From an uncultured Candidatus Saccharibacteria bacterium (GTDB lineage: Bacteria > Patescibacteriota > Saccharimonadia > Saccharimonadales > JBBQAJ01), in the NCBI GenBank assembly GCA_964593805.1, contig CAZQHP010000001.1:517283-581282 (forward strand): DNA of 64,000 nucleotides. Reading direction: 5' to 3'. A model generated the notes under the pieces. That model searched no databases and had not been told where the DNA came from. It saw only the letters and a program-made list of their open reading frames with translations. Positions 1-63,072 of the stretch are shown in pieces; position 1 is the stretch's first letter, and each line of letters starts with the position of its first letter. The translations under genes were made by a program, and so were the position numbers.

Positions 1-86
1 TTATGTTCGCTATCTTTTTCATGATTATCATCACGGCGGCGGACTTTGTATTGGACAAATTATTTAAACAATTGATACTGAAATAG
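1..86 (+). CDS. secE: SecE translocase subunit, C-terminal fragment (gene begins upstream of the window)
   Basis: Frame 3 reads MFAIFFMIIITAADFVLDKLFKQLILK* (a TM helix, stop TAG 84-86) directly upstream of nusG. The secE-nusG pairing is conserved. Confidence 0.5.
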   Translation, partial: MFAIFFMIIITAADFVLDKLFKQLILK

Positions 87-97
87 GAGTAATTTTT

Positions 98-640
98 ATG
101 GTAAAGCGCTACGACGCCACAAAGCAATGGTACGCCATTCACACCTACAGCGGCTACGAAGAAAAAGTAGCCGAAAGTATCCGCCAGCGTACCGAAAGCC
201 TGGACATGAAAGACAAAATCATCCAGGTACTGGTGCCCAAAGAAAAAATGATTGAAGTCAAAAACGGCAAGCGCAAGGTAGTGGAAAAGCGGATTTTCCA
301 GGGCTACGTGCTGGTCCAGATCAAAATGACCGAAGACGCCTGGTACATCGTGCGTAACACGCCGTCCGTAACAGGCTTTGTGGGCAGTGGCACTGAACCT
401 ACGCCAATTAGCGCTGACGAAATAGACAAAATCATGAAGCGCATGGGCCGTGACGAACCAAAACACAAGATTGATTACAAGATTGGCGAAGTCGTGAATA
501 TAATTGATGGACCGTTCAAAGGTTTTGACGGCAGCATCAACGAAGTAGACCAGACCAAAGGCAAGCTAAAAGTCCTGGTAAACATGTTCGGCCGTGAAAC
601 CCCAGTGGAACTTGACAGCCTTCAAGTTAAAAGAGTTTAA
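98..640 (+). CDS. nusG: Transcription termination/antitermination factor NusG
   Basis: 180 aa. The N-terminal NGN region (WYAIHTYSGYEEKV) and C-terminal KOW region (GEVVNIIDGPFKGFDGSI) are present, and GGAG precedes the ATG. Confidence 0.95.
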   Translation: MVKRYDATKQWYAIHTYSGYEEKVAESIRQRTESLDMKDKIIQVLVPKEKMIEVKNGKRKVVEKRIFQGYVLVQIKMTEDAWYIVRNTPSVTGFVGSGTEPTPISADEIDKIMKRMGRDEPKHKIDYKIGEVVNIIDGPFKGFDGSINEVDQTKGKLKVLVNMFGRETPVELDSLQVKRV

Positions 641-642
641 CA

Positions 643-948
643 ATGTTTGAAATTGATCAAGTTTGTCATGCCATTGAGTCTTGGCAGCCCTACGAGACTA
701 CCGATGCAGTATCAGACTTGTACTATCGGGTCGTTGACCTAGCGACCAAACCAAGTCCAACAGCTGATGATTTCAGACGATTAGGGATTGCCCGACTCGA
801 TTTGTCTCTCGAAGAAGATGATATTACTAAATGCGTTGAGTCGAGAGACGATTGGTATAGAGAAGGAAGTCTGGTTGTGGCGTTTTTCAGTTCACTCAGT
901 CAAATAGACGAGATAATTGCTGGACAACAGTGGTCGGAGAGAGTATAA
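643..948 (+). CDS. Hypothetical acidic 101-aa protein intercalated between nusG and rplK
   Basis: The ORF starts 2 nt after the nusG stop. I recognise no motif, and the RBS is weak. Confidence 0.4.
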   Translation: MFEIDQVCHAIESWQPYETTDAVSDLYYRVVDLATKPSPTADDFRRLGIARLDLSLEEDDITKCVESRDDWYREGSLVVAFFSSLSQIDEIIAGQQWSERV

Positions 949-983
949 TACAGTAGTTACGCACTCCTAAAGGAGTATTTTTT

Positions 984-1409
984 ATGGCAAAAAAAGTTAC
1001 AGCAAATTTGAAAATGAAAATCAAAGGCGGGCAAGCCTCAGCAGCACCGCCGGTTGGAAGTACCCTCGGCCAATACGGCGTGAATATGATGGATTTCATA
1101 GGTCCGTTCAATGAAGCCACCAAAGACCAGATGGGGCAAGACCTAACTGTACATATTGCAATCTACGAAGACCGCACCATGGATTTTAGAACAGTAGGCG
1201 TACCAACAGATGACCTAATCCGTAAAGCTTTGGGCATCCAAAAGGGTTCCGGCAAACCAAACACTGAAAAAATTTCCAAAAAACTAACAGACGCGCAGTT
1301 GACCGAAATCTCTGAAACTAAAGCAGGCGATATGAACACAGACAACATCCTCGCAGTTAAAAAAATCGTAGCCGGTACCGCCCGCAGCATGGGCGTGGAG
1401 GTTGAATAA
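984..1409 (+). CDS. rplK: 50S ribosomal protein L11
   Basis: 141 aa with the typical L11 N-terminus (KGGQASAAPPVGSTLGQYGVNMMDF). An AAAGGAG RBS is present. Confidence 0.97.
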   Translation: MAKKVTANLKMKIKGGQASAAPPVGSTLGQYGVNMMDFIGPFNEATKDQMGQDLTVHIAIYEDRTMDFRTVGVPTDDLIRKALGIQKGSGKPNTEKISKKLTDAQLTEISETKAGDMNTDNILAVKKIVAGTARSMGVEVE

Positions 1410-1657
1410 TGGCGAGCCCAGAAACCTCCGCCGAAGCATTCCCTCGGCGTTTTGATTTAATTGCGGCCGCCACAAGGCTTGCAGACGCAAGAGACGCACT
1501 TGCATTGGCCAGTCTGGAGAGAATAGAGGCCGAGACAGCGTTTCGGGACAGTTTTTTTGCCCTGCCACACGAAGAGAGACTAGCTGTTACTAGAACGCCA
1601 ATTGTAGACAGGCAACTTGCCGACATCAATAACGGATATCGCTATACGGACAGATAG
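1409..1657 (+). CDS. Hypothetical 82-aa Ala/Arg/Asp-rich protein intercalated between rplK and rplA
   Basis: Its ATG overlaps the rplK stop in a TAATG arrangement, with GGAGG 8 nt upstream. I recognise no family. Confidence 0.4.
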   Translation: MASPETSAEAFPRRFDLIAAATRLADARDALALASLERIEAETAFRDSFFALPHEERLAVTRTPIVDRQLADINNGYRYTDR

Positions 1658-1714
1658 AAAATTAATACGTGGGAGGCCGTAAGAAAGCCGCACGCACCAC
1701 GAAAGGAGTCCTAA

Positions 1715-2677
1715 ATGACAGAAACTAAGACGAAAGCAGTTAAAAAGGCCAAAAAGCCTGTTAAGGAGGCGGAAGATGGGACTATTGAAAAAACTACTCC
1801 GCTTGCGGCTGAAACAGCTGAGGAATCAAAAGTAGCAAAGCCTGCCGCAAAGGCTGGTAAACGTAGCGAAAAGGCGCTCAAAGAAACCGAAGAAAAACAG
1901 GCCAAACAAGAGCGCAAGAGTGTTACGAAAGACACCACGGATGAAAATCCAACCAAAGCCAAACAAAAACCCAAAACTAGAACTGTACTGGAGCGCAAAA
2001 GTAAAAAGTTCCGAAAAGCCGCCGAACAGGTTGAGGCTGGCAAAACCTATAGTCTAAAGGACGCGCTTGAATTAGCGGTCAAAACCAGCCCGGTCAAATT
2101 TGATGCTACCGTTGAGCTGCACGTCCGTTTGGGGATTGACCCGCGCCAAGCCGACCAGAACCTGCGCGACACTATTGTTTTGCCAGCAGGCAGCGGCAAA
2201 TCGGTGCGGGTGGCTGTATTCGCAGATGCCGATCAAGTAGTTGCTGCCAAAAAGGCCGGCGCCGACGTAGCAGCCGCGGATGAGTTTTTGCAACAGCTAG
2301 AAAAGGGTGCGATTGATTTTGACATACTGATCACCACTCCCCAGCAAATGGCAAAATTGGGCAAATACGCCCGTTTGCTAGGCCCCAAAGGCCTGATGCC
2401 AAATCCCAAAAGCGGTACGGTAACCACAGACATCGCTAAAGCAGTAGCCGAAGCCAAAACCGGACGGGTTGAATACCGGGTGGACAGCACCGGAATTGTG
2501 CACGTAGGAATTGGCAAAGTCAGTTTTGGGGCTGACAAATTGCTCCAAAACGGCCAAGCACTGCTAAGTAGCATCAAAAACAACCGCCCCGCCAGCCTAA
2601 AAACTACTTATGTGAAGTCAATTTTTGCCACAACCAGCATGGGCCCAAGTATTTCTGTGGAAATAACAGAAATATAA
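1715..2677 (+). CDS. rplA: 50S ribosomal protein L1 with a ~90-aa Lys/Glu/Ala-rich N-terminal extension
   Basis: 320 aa. The canonical L1 core begins near [30 protein letters not shown] strong AAAGGAG RBS precedes the ATG at 1715, and I see no in-frame ATG/GTG/TTG start near the canonical L1 N-terminus. Confidence 0.93.
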
Positions 2678-2803
2678 TTTTCAAACCCTCAATTTTCAGA
2701 TGCCGAGGCTAGAAGTTTGATATTTGAAAATTGAAAATTATACCTGCGCATTCAGAATGTATTTAGCTTTAAGCATCAGCGTTTTCTCTGGTACAATACC
2801 CTT

Positions 2804-3559
2804 ATGATTATTTTAGGCATGACCGGACCGATTGGCCACGGCAAGACAACTTTTGCCGAAACCCTAACCGAGCTGGAACCTTCTACGGTGCACTTTGAGT
2901 CTTCGCTTATAATCGCGGAAGTCGGCAATGCGATGCAGGCGGCTTTAACGGACATACCGGACCCGTACAACGTGGAACGGCTAAATAATTGGTTGCGCAC
3001 CCTGCCGGCAATATTACTGGAAGTAACCCACGTGCATTGCACGTTTGAACAGGTAAAGTTAGACCAACTTTCCATGGAAGAACACCCGATTGAGTTTCAA
3101 AAACTAATCCTGCACGTTGAAAACCTGCAGCGCAAACCGGAACTTATGCGGCAGCAAATTACCAAAGAAAACAAAGAAAGCTACCGGCCGTTTTTGCAAT
3201 GGCTGGGCGGTTATTTGGTGCAGCGCATAGACAGCGGCATCTGGTATAACGAAATTGTGCGGCGCATCCGTCAGGCTAGTTCCGCCGGCGCCCAGCTGTG
3301 CATTGTGGGCGGTTTGCGCTACCCTACAGACGCGGCTATTTTGCGGGGAGCAGGCGCTTTAATTATCAAAGTCTATCGCCCGGGCCATTTGCAAAGCGAT
3401 TTGATGGATCCGACGGAGCGAGAACGGCAGAACATACAAGTAGACTGTACTATCATGAGCAACGGCACATTGGCGGACGTAAAACGGTTGGCACCTTTGT
3501 TTTATGCGGATCTAAAGGCCAACAAACTGAACGCTATTTACAGAACCGCTACAGTGTAA
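2804..3559 (+). CDS. P-loop NTPase/kinase (dNMP-kinase or dephospho-CoA-kinase-like)
   Basis: 251 aa with a Walker A motif at the extreme N-terminus (GMTGPIGHGKTT). It lies immediately upstream of dcd and tmk-thyX. Confidence 0.55.
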   Translation: MIILGMTGPIGHGKTTFAETLTELEPSTVHFESSLIIAEVGNAMQAALTDIPDPYNVERLNNWLRTLPAILLEVTHVHCTFEQVKLDQLSMEEHPIEFQKLILHVENLQRKPELMRQQITKENKESYRPFLQWLGGYLVQRIDSGIWYNEIVRRIRQASSAGAQLCIVGGLRYPTDAAILRGAGALIIKVYRPGHLQSDLMDPTERERQNIQVDCTIMSNGTLADVKRLAPLFYADLKANKLNAIYRTATV

Positions 3560-3646
3560 ACCATAAACAATTTGTTGTAAGACAATAATACAACAGTAAA
3601 GTCTAGTACTAGCCTGTTCTCACCCGTACAATAGGAGTGAGGATTT

Positions 3647-4348
3647 ATGTCGGTTTATAGCAATATCCAAATCAAAGACGCCATCAAGCGGGGACACATA
3701 GTCTTTCATCCTTACGCCGAGCCAAACATCGCTGGCAGTAGCATAGACGTGACGCTCGGCGAATGGTTTTACCGCACGGAGCGCCCCAGCGAGGGTGGTT
3801 TTTATAACCCGTTTGATCCGGATGCCGTCCAGAAATACTTTGGTGAACCCCTAAAAGCCGAAATACACGCCGAATGGGCGGAAAAACACGGCCGCAAACT
3901 GTTTGCAAACATACCGCCCGGCCACCCAATCATCGTGCTTCGCCCCAAAGAACGCATTTTGGGCCACACCCACGAATTTATAGGCATCAAAGCACCGGGG
4001 ACCAGCACCATGCAGGCCCGCAGTACCTGGGGAAGGAATGGCGTAGCCGTTTGTTTGGACGCCGGCTGGGGAGATCCTGGCTACATAAACCGCTGGACTA
4101 TGGAAATCTACAACATGAACGAGCACGAAAGCGTGGTTTTACCGGTAGGGGAGCGGATTGCGCAGATGGTGTTTTACGAAACTGGCCCGGTTGACAGCGA
4201 GTACAAAAAGCTCAGCGGCAAATATCAGTCGGCCGAAAGTGCCGACCTGCCGTCTATTATCGCAAATTGGCAGCCCGAACAAATGCTGCCGCGCGCCTAC
4301 AAAGACACGCGGAAACTACCGGAGCAGATCAAAGGTTTAAAAGCATGA
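3647..4348 (+). CDS. dcd: dCTP deaminase / dUTPase-superfamily protein
   Basis: 233 aa with a Dcd-like N-terminus (IKDAIKRGHIVFHPYAEPNIAGSSIDVTLG). The RBS is AGGAGTGAGG. Confidence 0.8.
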   Translation: MSVYSNIQIKDAIKRGHIVFHPYAEPNIAGSSIDVTLGEWFYRTERPSEGGFYNPFDPDAVQKYFGEPLKAEIHAEWAEKHGRKLFANIPPGHPIIVLRPKERILGHTHEFIGIKAPGTSTMQARSTWGRNGVAVCLDAGWGDPGYINRWTMEIYNMNEHESVVLPVGERIAQMVFYETGPVDSEYKKLSGKYQSAESADLPSIIANWQPEQMLPRAYKDTRKLPEQIKGLKA

Positions 4349-6714
4349 TGGGCAAGGACAGGCCCGTGGGCACAGGCACGTTTCTAGCCATAGAAGGCAC
4401 CGACGGCTCAGGCAAAGGCACCCAGTTTGCCAAGCTGGAGCAGCGGCTCAAAGGCGAGGGCTACGATGTCGCGACCTTTGATTTTCCTCGCTACGACGAG
4501 CCTTCGTCTTACTTTGTAAAACAATATTTGAACGGCCAATACGGTACCGCCGAACAGGTCGGACCGTATACTGGGTCGCTATTTTACGCGCTTGACCGCT
4601 ACCAGGCCGCCGAACAGATAAGACAGGCGCTGAGTGATGGCAAAATAGTTATCGCCAATCGTTTCACTGGCAGCAATATGGCGCACCAAGGCACCAAATT
4701 CAGGCATGCTGAGGAAAGGCGCGGGTTTTTCATATGGCTGGACAATCTGGAATTTGAAATGCTCAAAATCCCGCGGCCGGACCGGTCAATTGTTTTACGG
4801 GTACCGGCAGAAATTGCCCAAAAACTAGTTGACCAAAAGCAAACGCGCAGCTACACGGACAAAAAACGCGATTTGCACGAAGCTGACCTGGCTCACATGG
4901 AACAAGCCGTGGAAGTATATGATGACCTGTGCCAGCTGTTTCCAAAAGACTTTACCCGTCTCGACTGTGTGCGTGATGGCAAATTAATGGGTGTTGATGC
5001 CGTTGCCAAACTTCTGTGGCAGTCGGTCGAACCGCACCTGCCACCAAAGCCGAAGGGTGGAGGGCCCAGAGCAGACAACAGAGTCGCGGAGACCAAAGTC
5101 GAAAACCCAAAGACAAATGTCCAAAAAACAGACAATCCATATATTGAAAAAACCGCGACCGGCTACCAAGTAACCCCCGCAGGGCAGACATTTTTGGATC
5201 TGAGCGTTACCAATAGCCAGGACGACGTCTACGCCTTTAGCGAAAAACTCAGCCCGACCACCATTGCCGCCGCCATGGCGCGCCTGTCCCGCCGCGGTGA
5301 TGATATGCGTGTTACGCTTTTGGACGAATTCGCACATGCTATGGGCAAAGACCAAAAACTGCTACAACGCGTTATTTCAGCCTACGGCGACGATTCTGTC
5401 CAGCAGCTGGTCGGCCAGCACGTCGTGGTAGAAAACGCCAGTAATTTGCTAACCAAAAAGCTTGAATGGGGCCGTTTGGCCGCTTATTTGGAGCAATCCA
5501 CCCGCTATATATACTTTGATAAAAAAGATGAAAACGGCAAGTACAAATACTTCACGCCGAAACATTTTGACTCAAAAACCGCCAAAACCTATGAAACGGC
5601 TATGGATCAGATATTTGACCTGTATTCAGACATGGTTCACAAACTTACCACGTACGTGCGCGATAAATCTGACGTGCCAAAAGCCGAACAAGACATAGCC
5701 TGGCAAGGTGCCACGCGCGCTCAAGCCTGCGACGCCATACGCGCGGTTTTGCCTGTGGCTACCAAAGCAACCGTAGGTATTTATGCCTCGGGACAAGCTC
5801 TGGAAAGCCTAATTATGCACCTGATGGCGGACGATTTGCCCGAAGCCGTTCATGTAGGCAAACAGCTGCTTGCAGAAGCCCGCAAAGTCATACCCACGTT
5901 TTTAGAGCGAGCCGATAAACCAGAGCGCGGCGGCGCTACTATTGCTTACAGCGCCAATACTCGGCACGCTGTAAAAGAGCTTGCTGGCAAGTATTTGCCA
6001 GACAACCACGCCAGCACCGCGGACGAAGTACAACTGGTGTCTTATTGGCCCCGCAACGAACTGGATCTGGTTCCAGATATGCTGTATGAACACAGCAGCT
6101 TGCCGCTCAAAGATTTGCAAACCCAAACGGCCAAATGGTCGATTGCCAAAAAAGAGGAAGTTTTTTCAGCTTACGTTGGCGAAAGATTAAACCGCCGGCA
6201 CAAGCCGGGCAGAGCCATAGAAAAAGCGCACTACAGCTGGGATTTGGTGTGCGACTACGGGATTTTTCGCGACCTCCAGCGGCACCGCATGGTGGACGAC
6301 ATGAACTGGCAGCTTTTGACTCCGCGCTACGGCTATGAAGTGCCCAAGCTTGTTGAAGACGCTCAGTTGGCTGAAATGTTTGAAAAGTGTTTCGACCTAA
6401 GCCTAGAGTTGTACAGCGCTCTTCAGGCGGCTGGCTACGCGCTGGAGGCCCAGTACGCCACCCTGCTGGGGCACCGCATGCGCTGGAAAGTTACCTATAA
6501 TGCCCGCGAAGCTTTTCATTTCCATGAACTCCGAACCAGTCCGCAGGGTCACCCGGGATACCGTAAATTGGTACTTCAAATGCACGAAAAACTTGCCGAG
6601 GTGCACCCCATGATGAGTGAGGCCATGAAGTTCGTAAATCAAGACGAAGACCCGGAACTGACCCGCCTAGCCGCCGAACGCGCCACCCAGTTCAAGCTCC
6701 AGCAGCTAGATTAA
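4345..6714 (+). CDS. tmk-thyX: Fusion protein: thymidylate kinase (N-terminal) plus long-form flavin-dependent thymidylate synthase ThyX (C-terminal)
   Basis: The Tmk region contains FLAIEGTDGSGKGTQ and DRY. The C-terminal ~530 aa carries ThyX-type motifs (FRDLQRHRM, FHFHELRTSPQGHPGYRKL). The ATG at 4345 overlaps the dcd stop as ATGA, so the upstream ORF extension from 4267 was rejected. Confidence 0.8.
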   Translation: MMGKDRPVGTGTFLAIEGTDGSGKGTQFAKLEQRLKGEGYDVATFDFPRYDEPSSYFVKQYLNGQYGTAEQVGPYTGSLFYALDRYQAAEQIRQALSDGKIVIANRFTGSNMAHQGTKFRHAEERRGFFIWLDNLEFEMLKIPRPDRSIVLRVPAEIAQKLVDQKQTRSYTDKKRDLHEADLAHMEQAVEVYDDLCQLFPKDFTRLDCVRDGKLMGVDAVAKLLWQSVEPHLPPKPKGGGPRADNRVAETKVENPKTNVQKTDNPYIEKTATGYQVTPAGQTFLDLSVTNSQDDVYAFSEKLSPTTIAAAMARLSRRGDDMRVTLLDEFAHAMGKDQKLLQRVISAYGDDSVQQLVGQHVVVENASNLLTKKLEWGRLAAYLEQSTRYIYFDKKDENGKYKYFTPKHFDSKTAKTYETAMDQIFDLYSDMVHKLTTYVRDKSDVPKAEQDIAWQGATRAQACDAIRAVLPVATKATVGIYASGQALESLIMHLMADDLPEAVHVGKQLLAEARKVIPTFLERADKPERGGATIAYSANTRHAVKELAGKYLPDNHASTADEVQLVSYWPRNELDLVPDMLYEHSSLPLKDLQTQTAKWSIAKKEEVFSAYVGERLNRRHKPGRAIEKAHYSWDLVCDYGIFRDLQRHRMVDDMNWQLLTPRYGYEVPKLVEDAQLAEMFEKCFDLSLELYSALQAAGYALEAQYATLLGHRMRWKVTYNAREAFHFHELRTSPQGHPGYRKLVLQMHEKLAEVHPMMSEAMKFVNQDEDPELTRLAAERATQFKLQQLD

Positions 6715-6721
6715 CTTGGGT

Positions 6722-7153
6722 TCAGAAAATCACCGGGGCAGGAGACCCCAACTCTACAGCCGCATACCAAGCTAACTGCAGCTCTCCGGCAGCATCGCTC
6801 ACGCCTTTGCCGTAGAGTGCTGCTCTGCCCGCAACGGCCTGTAGCTGTGTCGCTTCAGTAAGCGGCATGAACTCTACTCCGACTAATGCTCGGAATGTAT
6901 CGTGCACTGTTTGGTGATACTCGTTCATATCGCGGTTGACAGAGTTAAATACAAAATGCCAAAGAAGTGGATTCTCGGCAGGCGAATCGCCAAAAAGCTT
7001 AAACTGGGCGTGCATCTTTTCTGCCCAACTCGTTGCATGCATGACTGGATTTTGGCGTATTTCTTGAGCCGACAACACGTGCACACGATGATCCGCACGT
7101 TCGTATTCTACGACTTTTTCTACGGCTGAACGTCTTTTTTGATTTATTGTCAT
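6722..7153 (-). CDS. Hypothetical protein
   Basis: The 162-aa ORF opens with TTG at 7210. The first ATG (MTINQKRR) at 7153 was chosen as the start. No motif was recognised. Confidence 0.4.
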   Translation of the reverse strand: MTINQKRRSAVEKVVEYERADHRVHVLSAQEIRQNPVMHATSWAEKMHAQFKLFGDSPAENPLLWHFVFNSVNRDMNEYHQTVHDTFRALVGVEFMPLTEATQLQAVAGRAALYGKGVSDAAGELQLAWYAAVELGSPAPVIF

Positions 7154-7203
7154 ATTTATCTCGCTGGTGTTTCTATAATTTGTTATACGCTTACGTTTAG
7201 GGC

Positions 7204-7377
7204 TTGTCAATAATGTTTTTTAGGTGTATGTTTATCAATTATGGGTACTCGACCAAAGCACAGTTTGCAACTCCTCCTCGGCCTTACAGGGCTGTGCTTC
7301 ACAATGGTTGAAGCCTGATCCGCCGCGGCGGACATTGCACAGCCCCGAGCATCAGGCTTCACCGCCTGATTTTTTTA
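7204..7377 (+). promoter_or_regulatory. Promoter plus ~135-nt structured leader with mutually exclusive terminator/antiterminator (riboswitch or attenuator candidate)
   Basis: The promoter is TTGTCA(7204-7209)-17 nt-TATGTT(7227-7232). A 9-bp helix pairs 7289-7297 with 7337-7345. The terminator pairs 7351-7357 with 7364-7370 and is followed by a T-run. A 10-bp alternative pairing joins 7310-7319 to 7351-7360. Confidence 0.5.
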
Positions 7378-7396
7378 ATATCTTGAGGAGTCTATT

Positions 7397-7615
7397 ATGT
7401 GCAGTGATGGCAGTTGTGTAGAAAGTGCTGAGTTTTTTATGGAAATCAATCCTAATCTTTATGCCGGGGCAATTGGCATTGCTAGCCGCGAAGAAGTGGC
7501 AAAAAAAATAGTCAGCGAAGTTGTGGTTCTTTTGCCATATGACGGGGCAGACGCAAACATGGGCCCGGCAAAAACGGCCGTTTCCACGGACACCAGAGCT
7601 AATTTGATCCCTTGA
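7397..7615 (+). CDS. Hypothetical 72-aa protein downstream of the structured leader
   Basis: A GAGGAG RBS lies 6-7 nt upstream of the ATG. No motif was recognised. Confidence 0.45.
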   Translation: MCSDGSCVESAEFFMEINPNLYAGAIGIASREEVAKKIVSEVVVLLPYDGADANMGPAKTAVSTDTRANLIP

Positions 7616-7640
7616 CCGCAAGAGTCTACTCTGGTAGAAT
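7612..7640 (+). promoter_or_regulatory. Sigma-70-type promoter of the rplJL operon
   Basis: TTGACC(7612-7617)-17 nt-TAGAAT(7635-7640). Confidence 0.6.
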
Positions 7641-7742
7641 CATCTCGTTACCAAAGACAGCGACGATCCGCCTAGGCGGACTTGATAATGTCGCCGAGGT
7701 GCAAGCCGACAATTTGTTTTTGTTTGTGAGCATGTTTTTAAG

Positions 7743-7766
7743 CCCCTGGTAACACCAGGGGTTTTT
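7743..7766 (+). terminator. Intrinsic terminator/attenuator inside the rplJ leader
   Basis: cccctggt/accagggg forms an 8-bp stem with a 3-nt loop, followed by TTTTT. Confidence 0.65.
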
Positions 7767-7794
7767 GGTACTAAACAACTTGTACGGTCGAAGC

Positions 7795-7906
7795 AAGTTG
7801 AATGATCAATAATCAAGTGTCAATGGTCAATGAATGTAGAAATGGTTTAATCATTTAATGCATTGACAATTCATTGAACAATGAGCATTGACGCATTGAA
7901 CATTAA
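7795..7906 (+). repeat. CATTGA-rich intergenic element, copy A (upstream of rplJ)
   Basis: It holds tandem imperfect CATTGA(A/C) units. The 3' part, ttcattgaacaatgagcattgacgcattgaacatta, is homologous to 20295-20357. Confidence 0.7.
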
Positions 7907-7923: not shown

Positions 7924-8448
7924 ATGGCCTTAACCAAAAATAAGAAGAATGAAGTCGTCACCGAAGTCAGCCAGCTTTTGGCTGATTCTAAGTTGACGGT
8001 TATTGCGGCCTATCAGGGTACTTCTGTGAAAGCACTGCAAGCACTGCGCAAAAGCGGCCGCGAAAATGGCACCACGCTCAAAGTTGTCAAAAACCGGCTG
8101 GTAGTCCAGGCTCTCAAAGCCAATGACACCACCAAAGACATTGATACCAGCGCGTTGACTGGCATGCTCCTGTATGCTTTTAACAGCCAGGACGAGGCAG
8201 CGCCAGCGCAAACTTTGGCAAATTTTGCTAAAACCCAGCCAACGCTGCAGTTTGTGGGCGCAATCACCGCCGAAGGCGCTTTTATGGCAGCCGACGAAGT
8301 AAAAGTATTTGCCGCGCTGCCGGGCAAAAATCAACTTATTGCTGGCATCATCAACACCCTTAATTCACCCGTGCGCGGTGTTATGGGAAGCTTGTCCGGC
8401 AATTTGCATGGAATTTTACAAGCCCTGGAAGCCAAAGCTGCTAATTAA
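7924..8448 (+). CDS. rplJ: 50S ribosomal protein L10
   Basis: 174 aa with L10-like sequence. A GGAGGA RBS is present, and rplL follows. Confidence 0.95.
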
Positions 8449-8465: not shown

Positions 8466-8846
8466 ATGGCAACAGATCTAAAGAAATTCGCGGAACAGCT
8501 GGTAAATCTCAGCGTTCTCGAAGTAAATGAACTAGGAACAATCCTCAAAGACGAATATGGCATTGAACCAGCCGCCGCGGCTGTGGCCGTAGCTGCTCCA
8601 GCTGGTGGAGAGGCTGCTCCAGCCGCCGAAGAAAAATCTGAATACGACGTCGTCCTCAAAGACGCTGGCGCTCAGAAGGTAGCTGTTATCAAGGCAGTTA
8701 AGGATATAACCGGTCTGGGTCTTGGCGAAGCCAAGGCTGTAGTAGACGGCGCTCCAAAAACTGTTTTGGAAAAAGCCAAAAAAGAAGACGCCGAAAACGC
8801 CAAAAAAGTGCTTGAAGAAGCCGGCGCTACCGTAGAATTGTCATAA
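8466..8846 (+). CDS. rplL: 50S ribosomal protein L7/L12
   Basis: 126 aa with an Ala-rich hinge and the C-terminal domain sequence [28 protein letters not shown]. Confidence 0.97.

Positions 8847-60464: not shown

Positions 60465-60465
<1 letters not shown>
60019..60465 (-). CDS. Hypothetical 148-aa protein intercalated between atpD and atpC
   Basis: Its ATG overlaps the atpD stop as TAATG, with AAGGAG upstream, and its 3' end overlaps the atpC start by 23 nt. Competing ORFs on the opposite strand lower the confidence. Confidence 0.4.
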
Positions 60466-62199
<1,734 letters not shown>

Positions 62200-62203
<4 letters not shown>

Positions 62204-63072
62204 TTCTGAATTGCCTCCGCTCCGCCGGTTATTTCGGCTAGTTCCTGAGTAATTGCCGCCTGGCGGGCGGTGTTGAATTCCAGTGTCAGGTCATCTATCA
62301 GGTCAGTCGCGTTGTCGGTGGCGCTTTTCATGGCCATCATGCGCATACTGTGTTCGGACGCCAGACTTTCCAGCAGGGCTTGCCAGACTTGCACCTCCAG
62401 CAGCCGCTCGGTCACACTGTCCAAAACCACTTCTATAGACGGTTCAAAGGTAGTGTTATCTAGCGCATGGGCGGATTCTTCGGTTTCTTCAAACCGAGCG
62501 GGCAATAGCGCCATGGCGGTGGCTTCCTGCACCAGGTTGGATTTGAACTGCGTGTACAGCACTTTGACGTCATCCGCATCTTGAGCTCGGTAAGATTCGA
62601 TTACGGTTTTGAGCACGGGACGGATGTCATTGGCGCTCGGATGATCTGGAAACTCCGTGTAGGCCGCCACCATGTCTACGCCAGACACGCGGCGGGCGAA
62701 TTTGGCGCCTTGCTTGCCAATGGCAATCACCTGGGTTTTCACGCCGGCTTTTTGGTCTTCCAGGATGGCGCGGGTCAGCATGCGTAGTATGTTGGCGTTG
62801 TAAGCGCCGGCTAGTGTGCCGTTGCTGGTGATGACCACGTACAAGCGCTGTTTGACAGGCCGCTGAACGAACAACGGGTGTTCGCTAACTTCCGTGATGG
62901 CGCTCAGGCGCGTCAGTAGTGAATAAGCAAATTCGCGGTATGTCCGGCCAGCCAAGGCGTATTCCTGAGCCCGGCGCATTTTGCTAGCGGCGACAAGTTC
63001 CATAGCCTTAGTAATCTGCTTGGTGTTTTTTACCGACCCAATCCGGCGCTTGAGGGTAATCGTATTAGCCAC
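62200..63072 (-). CDS. atpG: F1 ATP synthase subunit gamma
   Basis: 290 aa with the N-terminal motif RRIGSVKNTKQITKAMELVAASKMRRAQ. Confidence 0.93.

Follow-up and report, generated by a model that had tools for sequence, protein, structure and literature searches.

The question raised by this locus is what two small open reading frames (ORFs) are doing between the genes nusG, rplK and rplA of an uncultured Candidatus Saccharibacteria bacterium (TM7, order Saccharimonadales). The stretch analysed, referred to throughout as the window, is 64,000 nucleotides (nt) long (assembly GCA_964593805.1, contig CAZQHP010000001.1, positions 517,283 to 581,282 of the forward strand); ORF1 lies between nusG and rplK and ORF2 between rplK and rplA. 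An earlier, sequence-only reading of the window had offered three explanations for them: new ribosome- or transcription-associated factors, passengers exploiting core-operon expression, or expanded regulatory spacers. Here both ORFs are shown to be under coding selection and the landmarks around them to be fixed, while the cargo between those landmarks varies extremely, being replaced like a cassette, with similarity breaking off sharply at the edges of the slots. The passenger explanation is the best fit of the three. From the comparison of related genomes we think it likely that ORF1 and ORF2 are genuine, translated, lineage-restricted accessory passengers, translationally coupled to their neighbours, in two insertion-tolerant hypervariable slots.

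Results

ORF1 and ORF2 evolve as coding sequences

The layout of the locus is as follows (aa, amino acids; pI, isoelectric point).

98-640, + strand: nusG, 180 aa (Pfam NusG, 5.8e-30, and a weak KOW match), the upstream anchor of slot 1
643-948, + strand: ORF1, 101 aa, pI 4.2, the occupant of slot 1; its ATG is 2 nt past the nusG TAA
921-949, + strand: predicted rplK promoter, with -35 TGGACA (921-926), a 17-nt spacer and -10 TATAAT (944-949); 11/12 match to sigma-70
956-983, + strand: rplK 5' leader, short form, with the +1 block GTTACGCAC, a hairpin ACUCC/GGAGU (963-976) and U6, before the ATG at 984
984-1409, + strand: rplK (L11, 141 aa; Pfam Ribosomal_L11_N and Ribosomal_L11), the anchor separating the two slots
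1409-1657, + strand: ORF2, 82 aa, pI 5.0, the occupant of slot 2; its ATG shares an A with the rplK TAA (TAATG)
1658-1714, + strand: spacer between ORF2 and rplA
1715-2677, + strand: rplA (L1, 320 aa; Pfam Ribosomal_L1, 2e-56, residues 123-311)

The ORF coordinates, the 2-nt spacing from nusG, the TAATG overlap and the GGAGG upstream of it (1397-1401, 7 nt before the ORF2 start) had all been given in the sequence-only reading and are confirmed. The window was compared with the rplK neighbourhoods of 80 species representatives; these and the other related loci, which come from metagenome-assembled genomes of Candidatus Saccharimonadales / Saccharibacteria (TM7), are numbered here L001, L002 and so on. 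In the 80 species L11 is 76-92% identical to the copy in the window and the nusG product is 80-99% identical at the amino acid level.

A word-indexed search of 5.8 billion proteins returned one relative for ORF1 (80% identical, in L001) and one for ORF2 (87%, in L002), each located at the matching junction. The comparison of ORF1 with L001 gave a ratio of nonsynonymous to synonymous substitution rates (dN/dS) of 0.063, and 46 of the 75 differences fall at codon position 3 (P = 6e-7); for ORF2 and its L002 relative (87% at the amino acid level by BLASTP) the ratio was 0.076, with 33/53 differences at position 3 (P = 1.5e-5). In each of these comparisons the ORF frame is the sole stop-free frame of six and has the lowest dN/dS; the co-phased antisense frames of the two ORFs contain stops and have values of 0.23-0.25. 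It is clear from the coding periodicity, the low dN/dS and the sole open frame that the ORFs are real genes, as the sequence-only reading had held. The start of ORF2 in L002 reads TAGTG, and therefore the coupling of ORF2 to rplK is kept. An antisense gene at 1357-1629 (- strand) in place of ORF2 was considered and rejected: when aligned, that frame contains stops, and its dN/dS is 0.25, whereas the + frame has 0.076.

More distant relatives of ORF1 came from an exhaustive HMMER scan of 1.84 billion representatives with an ORF1 profile, which gave 12 more proteins of 95-107 aa (E 1e-11 to 3e-4). Eleven of these 12 were retrieved and aligned; they are 29-40% identical to ORF1, and the family has 12 invariant columns and the pattern MLEIDxVRxAIE..YE..D..SD.Y...IDLATRP...AY...L.QVD. 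In degenerate form this becomes an N-terminal M[LF]EIDxV..A[IF]E, then SD.Y...I.L.T and a C-terminal AY...L.Q[VI]D. The family was found exclusively in slot 1, in genomes whose L11 is 72-92% identical to that of the window. All four members whose context was checked lie directly 5' of rplK and, in the two contigs that reach it, directly 3' of nusG. Because these located members sit upstream of rplK in genomes whose L11 is just 72-75% identical to the window's, the family appears to be old and to stay in slot 1. Among the 80 species representatives only 2 carry a relative (L001, and L028 marginally), and the slot-2 ORFs of the genomes with the family are all unlike ORF2. Taken together, the alignments and contexts suggest that the ORF1 family is small, old, patchy, specific to the Saccharimonadales and inherited in place.

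ORF2 has a single known relative, that of L002, which was found by the protein search; none of the 80 species representatives carries one. ORF2 is missing from L001, where the operator described below comes 14 nt past the rplK stop. Database searches did not identify either protein. ORF1 and its family gave no match in Pfam, NCBIfam, PHROGs, PADLOC or PDB sequences, and ORF2 none in Pfam, PADLOC or PDB sequences. The AlphaFold2 (AF2) model of ORF1 is all-helical with five helices (predicted confidence, pLDDT, 58), and that of ORF2 (pLDDT 80) combines a long helix at 10-51 with two short ones; Foldseek searches of PDB and BFVD with these gave nothing significant (best E 0.42 for ORF1 and 1.7-8 for ORF2). 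The slot proteins also had no relatives in IMG/VR viral contigs or GenBank phages. Within the coding part of ORF2, at 1530-1557, there is a terminator-like hairpin, CCGAGACAGCGUUUCGG, with a U-rich run after it; it is probably due to chance, because the number of such matches in the region equals the expectation from shuffling.

Two slots recur across the Saccharimonadales

Across the related loci the nusG-rplK gap ranges from 9 to 2704 nt and the rplK-rplA gap, which was measured between the rplK stop and the operator, from 8 to 2354 nt. Both are filled by + strand ORFs of roughly 60-140 aa that start beside the upstream stop codon. When only gaps of 150-450 nt are considered, a lone + strand ORF takes up 80% or more of the gap at 85% of the 47 rplK-rplA loci and 69% of the 35 nusG-rplK loci, compared with 1% for shuffled gaps. 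Slot 1 is occupied in 60/75 loci, with starts mostly 0-17 nt past the nusG stop. In slot 2 the first ORF usually begins 0-9 nt from the rplK stop, and in most of the 58 occupied loci the last stop comes 3-15 nt before the GUGG that opens the operator. Roughly one locus in four has no ORF in slot 2, and there the distance from stop to operator is unchanged.

The pooled small slot ORFs (133 sequences) have a gene-like codon-position composition, with G at position 1 at a frequency of 0.38, compared with 0.39-0.41 in rplK and rplA; antisense ORFs have a flat one. The products are mostly acidic: pI is below 6 in 91% of them (median 4.8), as against 4% of random ORFs of equal base composition and 11% of antisense ORFs, and in the window the neighbours of ORF1 and ORF2 are basic (pI 8.8-9.7). 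A membrane-like segment is found in 20% of the small slot ORFs.

Slot contents are replaced between fixed flanks

A BLASTP comparison followed by an iterative all-vs-all jackhmmer search (192 sequences searched, 151 clusters) left 131 of about 170 slot ORFs as singletons. Those that were not singletons are pairs from the closest species, a 7-member sigma-70 set and the ORF1 family. That all slot ORFs might belong to one fast-evolving family was rejected, since the iterated ORF1 profile reached only L028 and the jackhmmer search left the 131 singletons. When 145 slot ORFs were compared with Pfam and PADLOC, only the 7 sigma-70 proteins and a few single weak matches were obtained; the weak Pfam matches are mostly to helix-turn-helix domains, none at E <1e-5. 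The sigma-70 set consists of complete sigma-70-family genes of about 330-420 aa, found in slot 1 of seven species (L002, at 6169-7194; L011, L027, L031, L036, L043 and L056); their best PADLOC match is MzaA (5.6e-33), probably through shared sigma domains. ORF1 as a remnant of such a sigma factor was rejected on an hhalign probability of 0.15%.

Similarity at the DNA level between the window and its relatives is lost exactly at 640 and regained at 955-984, then lost at 1408 and regained at 1659-1663. In L001, ORF1 is present and slot 2 is empty, and in L002, ORF2 is present and a sigma factor occupies slot 1. Loss of the ORFs from close relatives with the spacing retained was what the sequence-only reading held would count against the ORFs; ORF2 is indeed absent from L001 and ORF1 from L002, but what these genomes have lost or exchanged is the entire segment, and its spacing was not preserved. 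The pair L080 and L082 is 89% identical at the nucleotide level through rplK and its leader, has no similarity across slot 2 (ORFs of 83 and 87 aa) and is 73% identical from the operator onwards; therefore this is a replacement or a recombination mosaic and not divergence. Among pairs of species whose L11 is at least 95% identical, just 1/8 share a detectable ORF in slot 1 and 2/7 in slot 2. We conclude from these comparisons that the region is probably a recombination mosaic with its junctions at the slots. The level of identity also changes from gene to gene, being 90% over nusG (window 1-640) and 79% over rplK-rplA (982-2680) between the window and L002, and 89% for rplK and 73% for rplA between L080 and L082.

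No flanking direct or inverted repeats were found around ORF1 or ORF2, and insertion of a mobile element was rejected, there being no repeats bracketing the ORFs. There is likewise no nuclease or transposase Pfam domain among the 145 slot ORFs that would indicate a homing endonuclease, insertion sequence or integron cassette. In one locus (L090, 1338-1982) the L11 frame extends about 70 codons into slot 2, to a total of 214 aa; either L11 has become fused to a slot ORF in nature or the assembly contains a frameshift error.

The downstream edge of slot 1 is a predicted rplK promoter

The match at 921-949 is the top sigma-70 match within 1-2900. The promoter overlaps the last 9 codons of ORF1, whose stop (946-948) is within the -10 box. 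Three elements are shared by 74/83 loci, namely the -35 block (c)TAGACAACAGGGGT, the -10 box and a +1 block of the GTTAC type (GTTACGCAC in most); a strict regular expression for the -35 region (c)TAGACAACAGGGGT and the -10 box is passed by 51/83, and the GTTACRYA form of the +1 block is found upstream of rplK in 65 of 83. Many slot-1 ORFs either end at the TAG of the -35 box or pass through it as ...QQG. Since this conserved promoter and leader (921-983) lie over the 3' end of ORF1, ORF1 would be part of the secE-nusG unit, and ORF2 of the rplKA unit. The sequence-only reading had treated nusG-rplK-rplA as a single uninterrupted operon, which does not agree with a conserved promoter and leader at this position.

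The hairpin of the rplK leader holds the Shine-Dalgarno (SD) sequence AAGGAG (970-975). The hairpin and its U-run were flagged as terminator-like, and the leader resembles the 3' half of the L1 operator (repeat D4). A short-form leader of 29-33 nt is shared by about a dozen species.

In 23/65 species, compared with 1.15 expected by shuffling, the rplK leader contains modules like those of the L1 operator. The motif is GUUACGCA-(CUAC or CUUC)-loop-(GUAG or GAAG)-GA-(covarying hairpin)-G, with hairpins such as GAAC/GUUC, GAGUG/CACUC and GAGGC/GCCUC; it corresponds to the modules of the operator (GUGG-GA-hairpin-G-UUAGCA-CCAC) in circularly permuted order. It is located about 60-100 nt 5' of rplK, near locus position 3900-4000, in L011, L014, L015, L018, L019, L025, L034, L045, L048, L050, L059, L062-L064, L068, L075, L078, L079, L084 and others. 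This motif may be a second, putative L1-binding site before rplK. The leader of the window has only a truncated short form of it (956-976).

A predicted L1 operator precedes rplA

The downstream edge of slot 2 and the start of rplA are made up of the following features.

1658-1668, + strand: AT-rich linker AAAATTAATAC, from the ORF2 stop to the operator
1669-1700, + strand: predicted L1-binding operator, a mimic of 23S ribosomal RNA (rRNA) helices 77/78
1703-1717, + strand: rplA SD sequence AAGGAG (1703-1708) and ATG (1715-1717), directly 3' of the second P1 strand
1715-2029, + strand: N-terminal extension of L1, 105 aa, rich in Lys, Ala and Glu, preceding the Pfam L1 domain

The predicted operator consists of an outer stem, P1 (GUGG, 1669-1672, with CCAC, 1697-1700), a bulge of G1673 and A1674, an inner stem, P2 (GGC, 1675-1677, with GCC, 1687-1689), closed by a loop at 1678-1686, and a 3' joining strand of G1690 followed by CACGCA. 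The stop of ORF2 lies 11 nt 5' of it, and it ends 2 nt before the rplA SD sequence and 14 nt before the ATG. It is found upstream of rplA in 82/83 loci with the general form (A)AUUAAUUU-GUGGGA-(hairpin)-G-N5-A-CCAC-GAAAGGAG-N5-9-AUG. In most of the 78 loci that were aligned the consensus (A)ATTAATTT stands ahead of GUGGGA, the block ACCACGAAAGGAG-N5-9-ATG is conserved in the 78; with or without a slot ORF, GUGG lies mostly 8-15 nt past the last stop codon before it. The sole related locus without the operator is L062 (about 4429-4432), where the rplA ATG comes 2 nt past the rplK stop; its rplK leader is among those with the putative permuted L1 site.

In the 78 sequences 96.5% of cells are paired, compared with 82% after shuffling (0/500 shuffles reach the observed value) and 32-54% with slid partners. 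P1 is invariant in this alignment and P2 has 3-8 base pairs, with compensatory changes in all four scored P2 pairs (for example GGCC/GGCC, GUUC/GAAC and CCAU/AUGG). The folding z-score of the single sequence is only -1.0, and its minimum free energy structure pairs CGUGG with CCACG; the operator is supported because of covariation and not folding energy. The sequence-only reading had suggested, as speculation, an L1 autoregulatory site in the spacer. In substance this was right and is now backed by covariation, but the hairpin that it drew, CGUG/CACG (1668-1694), has the wrong 3' strand: the phylogeny supports instead the pairing of GUGG (1669-1672) with CCAC (1697-1700), enclosing GGC/GCC.

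The operator shares GUGGGAGGC, GCCG and ACCAC with the L1 stalk of Escherichia coli 23S rRNA (about nt 2114-2173), which reads GGUGGGAGGC...GCCGACC..UACCACC and was confirmed as 23S rRNA in all 5426 E. coli genomes; E. coli was used for this comparison, the organism's own 23S rRNA lying outside the window. A covariance model of the operator (R1) has one match in the 64-kb window (E = 6e-15) and none in E. coli 23S rRNA, a negative of no weight, since the model includes flanks found only in the mRNA as well as short loops. Rfam gave nothing relevant in 1-4000 at E up to 10, nor in the whole window at the gathering score. An L1-interacting RNA is described in passages of Fu et al. 2013 (PMC3616713) as a stem of 6-12 base pairs with an internal bulge, a potential G-A pair and an unpaired A, and is placed there between rplK and rplA in Actinobacteria, Cyanobacteria and Chloroflexi. 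The element at 1669-1700 fits that description in both motif and position. It would therefore be a further member of the known class of L1 RNA, in a phylum where, as far as those passages go, it was previously not noted.

The basic extension of L1 is present in all 80 related species and is about 85-140 aa long when counted from the rplA ATG after the operator; lengths of 94-187 aa are obtained from the first in-frame start, which is often inside the operator. The extension is kept both where slot 2 is occupied and where it is empty.

Other junctions in the window

The sequence-only reading had seen a parallel in the atp operon, and this is borne out: an unannotatable ORF of 109 aa at 61874-62203 (- strand; pI 4.5, no Pfam match) occupies the atpG-atpD junction, overlapping the stop of atpG (62200-63072) by 4 nt and the start of atpD (60465-61874) by 1 nt. 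In the 5.8 billion proteins it has a single relative, 63% identical, at the matching junction in L092. Like ORF1 and ORF2, it is an orphan coupled to its neighbours, and therefore the phenomenon extends beyond the nusG-rplKA region. The sequence-only reading had suggested a phenomenon of this lineage; it is indeed lineage-wide, being seen in most of the 80 Saccharimonadales species and also in the atp operon of this genome.

The rplKA-rplJL string is also interrupted in the window, at 2804-7816, by genes of nucleotide metabolism. The interrupting set comprises a DNMK-like kinase gene at 2804-3559, one resembling dCTP deaminase at 3647-4348 and, at 4267-6714, an open frame of about 800 aa; rplJ follows at 7924-8448 and rplL at 8466-8846. 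L002 keeps this arrangement, and its frame matching 4267-6714 carries thymidylate-kinase and ThyX domains.

Discussion

How the slots may work

Slot 1 runs from the nusG stop to the conserved rplK promoter, and ORF1 could be read by re-initiation 2 nt past that stop. Since slot 1 ends at a promoter, ORF1 would be the last cistron of the nusG transcript. Slot 2 begins at the rplK stop and ends at the predicted L1 operator, next to the rplA SD sequence; ORF2 would be translated through UAAUG coupling to rplK. Ribosomes finishing ORF2 would stop 11 nt short of P1 and in doing so briefly open the operator, just like those finishing rplK where the slot is empty. The distance of termination is the same in the two cases, and therefore the coupling of rplK to rplA and the feedback by L1 would be preserved whatever the cargo. 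Free L1 is expected to bind the operator, cover the adjacent SD sequence and repress rplA. The cargo itself might turn over through recombination anchored in the highly conserved flanks, through local gene birth, or both.

The slot proteins are small, acidic, helical and mostly soluble; their sequences matter within a clade and are dispensable across clades, which argues for a species-specific accessory role rather than one in the ribosome or the transcription machinery. An accessory role riding on core-operon expression is most likely; a harmless translated spacer ranks next, then conflict cargo, and last a dedicated partner of NusG, L11 or L1. The new ribosome- or transcription-associated factors that had been proposed are unlikely, since slot contents are unrelated between species whose L11 is 95-99% identical.

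Several points weigh against reading the ORFs as accessory passengers in hypervariable slots. Each dN/dS value comes from one pairwise comparison per ORF, in which dS is saturated, although the signal is strong and agrees with the ORF1 family and the wider set of slot ORFs. The ORF of L028 is barely recognised by the ORF1 profile despite a 99% identical NusG, and some seemingly unrelated slot ORFs could be homologues that have diverged past detection. Donor sequences, flanking repeats or recombinase genes that would explain the entry of cargo were not found, and the AF2 model of ORF1 is poor. The acidity of the slot ORFs is usual for soluble cytosolic bacterial proteins and narrows their function only weakly (42% of the long ORFs in the window have a pI <6); since it is common among such proteins, it reads as soluble and not nucleic-acid-binding and indicates no single function.

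Alternative explanations

If the slot ORFs were translated spacers that tune the coupling and the L11:L1 ratio, their peptides being harmless by-products arisen de novo from inserted or duplicated DNA, one would expect much of what is seen. Their starts and stops are tightly bound to the landmarks and their sequences are not, nearly all of them are orphans among the 5.8 billion proteins, and 91% are acidic with no shared sequence, as expected under selection against toxicity. We nevertheless regard this as unlikely. A dN/dS of 0.06-0.08 means that the amino acid sequence itself is conserved, and the ORF1 family holds 12 invariant residues at 29-40% identity between genomes whose L11 is only 72-75% identical. 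Furthermore, about one locus in four has nothing in slot 2 and yet keeps the stop-to-operator distance, and therefore a spacer is not needed for coupling. Another alternative, in which 1409-1714 is a long structured rplA leader, 643-983 is an rplK leader and the ORFs are chance open frames, deserves almost no credence. It is true that 921-983 and 1663-1714 are regulatory RNA or DNA, but for the ORF bodies this explanation is refuted by our comparisons: differences accumulate at position 3, the low dN/dS is specific to the frame, there is a conserved protein family, Rfam has no match, the gaps are filled in 69-85% of cases against 1% in shuffles, and DNA similarity to relatives is confined to the landmarks and absent over the ORF bodies. 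The expanded regulatory spacers of the sequence-only reading are rejected for the ORF bodies on the same coding periodicity, dN/dS and protein family.

Alternatively, the slots might hold conflict cargo (immunity, anti-defence or nucleic-acid-mimic inhibitors) lodged beside indispensable and highly expressed genes, with an arms race against phages, hosts or competitors driving turnover. Hyperdiverse small acidic ORFs at a fixed position are typical of orphan immunity genes and of the anti-defence and accessory loci of phages, and the slots have such small, acidic, hyperdiverse and unrelated ORFs at a fixed position, replaced between near-identical flanks. This too seems improbable: there is no PADLOC or PHROG match beyond the 7 sigma factors (MzaA model) and isolated ones at E >0.001, no relatives in phages or viral contigs and no adjacent gene for a partner toxin or a regulator; the ORF1 family has been passed on at one position without moving around; and dN/dS is low with no sign of positive selection. 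It is also possible to imagine that ORF1, ORF2 or both are lineage-specific partners of NusG, L11 or L1, for instance acidic chaperones for the Lys-rich extension of L1. The ORFs adjoin their putative clients and are translationally coupled to them, they are acidic where the neighbours are basic (pI 8.8-9.7), the ORF1 family is found only after nusG, and every species has the basic L1 extension. Yet the clients are 75-99% conserved between species in which the supposed partners are unrelated or absent, the extension is independent of slot 2 occupancy, and a similar ORF occurs in the atp operon, so that we consider such a partnership very improbable. Accessory passengers coupled to the core genes remain the explanation that we prefer.

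Relation to known systems

In E. coli, secE-nusG is followed by a separate promoter and leader and then by rplK-rplA, with translational coupling within the unit. The gene order, the separate rplK promoter and leader and, by prediction, the coupling are shared with the locus described here; the differences are an extra cistron after nusG, whose 3' end overlaps the rplK promoter, a second between rplK and rplA, and L1 control before rplA rather than before rplK. Variable small and often acidic cargo between conserved anchors is also known from horizontal-transfer and recombination hotspots flanked by core genes and from phage 'moron' and anti-defence loci. The slots are like recombination hotspots and phage accessory loci in having unrelated cargo at one position, sharp breakpoints and mosaic flanks. 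Unlike those, each holds just one ORF, of 60-140 aa; it sits in a core translation operon with only a few nt to spare and is translationally coupled. No integrase, repeats or regulator accompany it, and the families seem to be inherited in place. As with other orphan small proteins of the candidate-phyla-radiation bacteria, there is no homologue outside a narrow clade and no known domain; here, however, the orphans are tied to two (probably more) operon junctions common to the whole order, and therefore species can be compared like for like.

The predicted operator resembles the L1 autoregulatory mRNA of the E. coli L11-operon leader and of the Methanococcus vannielii L1 mRNA, and the bacterial examples in passages of the survey by Fu et al. 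2013 (PMC3616713), in its placement before rplA, its bulged G-A stem, its 23S strings and its contact with the SD sequence. It differs from them in occurring in the Saccharimonadales, a candidate-phyla-radiation lineage that those passages do not name, in matching no Rfam family, and in having an unrelated small ORF between rplK and the operator in most species; its binding is predicted. In the literature searched we found no description of small ORFs between nusG, rplK and rplA in Saccharibacteria. What is unusual is the location in a core translation operon and in the atp operon, the packing at the level of single nucleotides, the coupling and the number of unrelated ORFs, about 130 in 80 species.

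Significance

In an order with genomes of about 0.8 Mb, two junctions of a highly conserved gene string hold a different small protein in nearly every species. This is a clean system in which to study the birth, replacement and constraint of small proteins, with hundreds of natural variants of one locus whose expression context is known. Genetic manipulation of Saccharibacteria is now possible, and therefore the slot genes are testable. The probable mosaic structure of the region calls for caution in the annotation of these lineages and in phylogenomics based on marker genes. In addition, the known range of the L1 feedback operator would now reach into the candidate phyla radiation, where some species may also have a circularly permuted version of it before rplK.

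Finally, we put forward, tentatively and as rather less than an even chance, that the Saccharimonadales, and perhaps candidate-phyla-radiation bacteria generally, keep coupled cargo slots inside their most conserved and most highly expressed operons (nusG/rplK, rplK/rplA and atpG/atpD), in which small soluble orphans are born, exchanged and lost rapidly while the landmarks stay fixed. If true, this would be an undescribed mode of holding an accessory genome in an ultra-small cell, with hundreds of independent small-protein 'experiments' at one locus.

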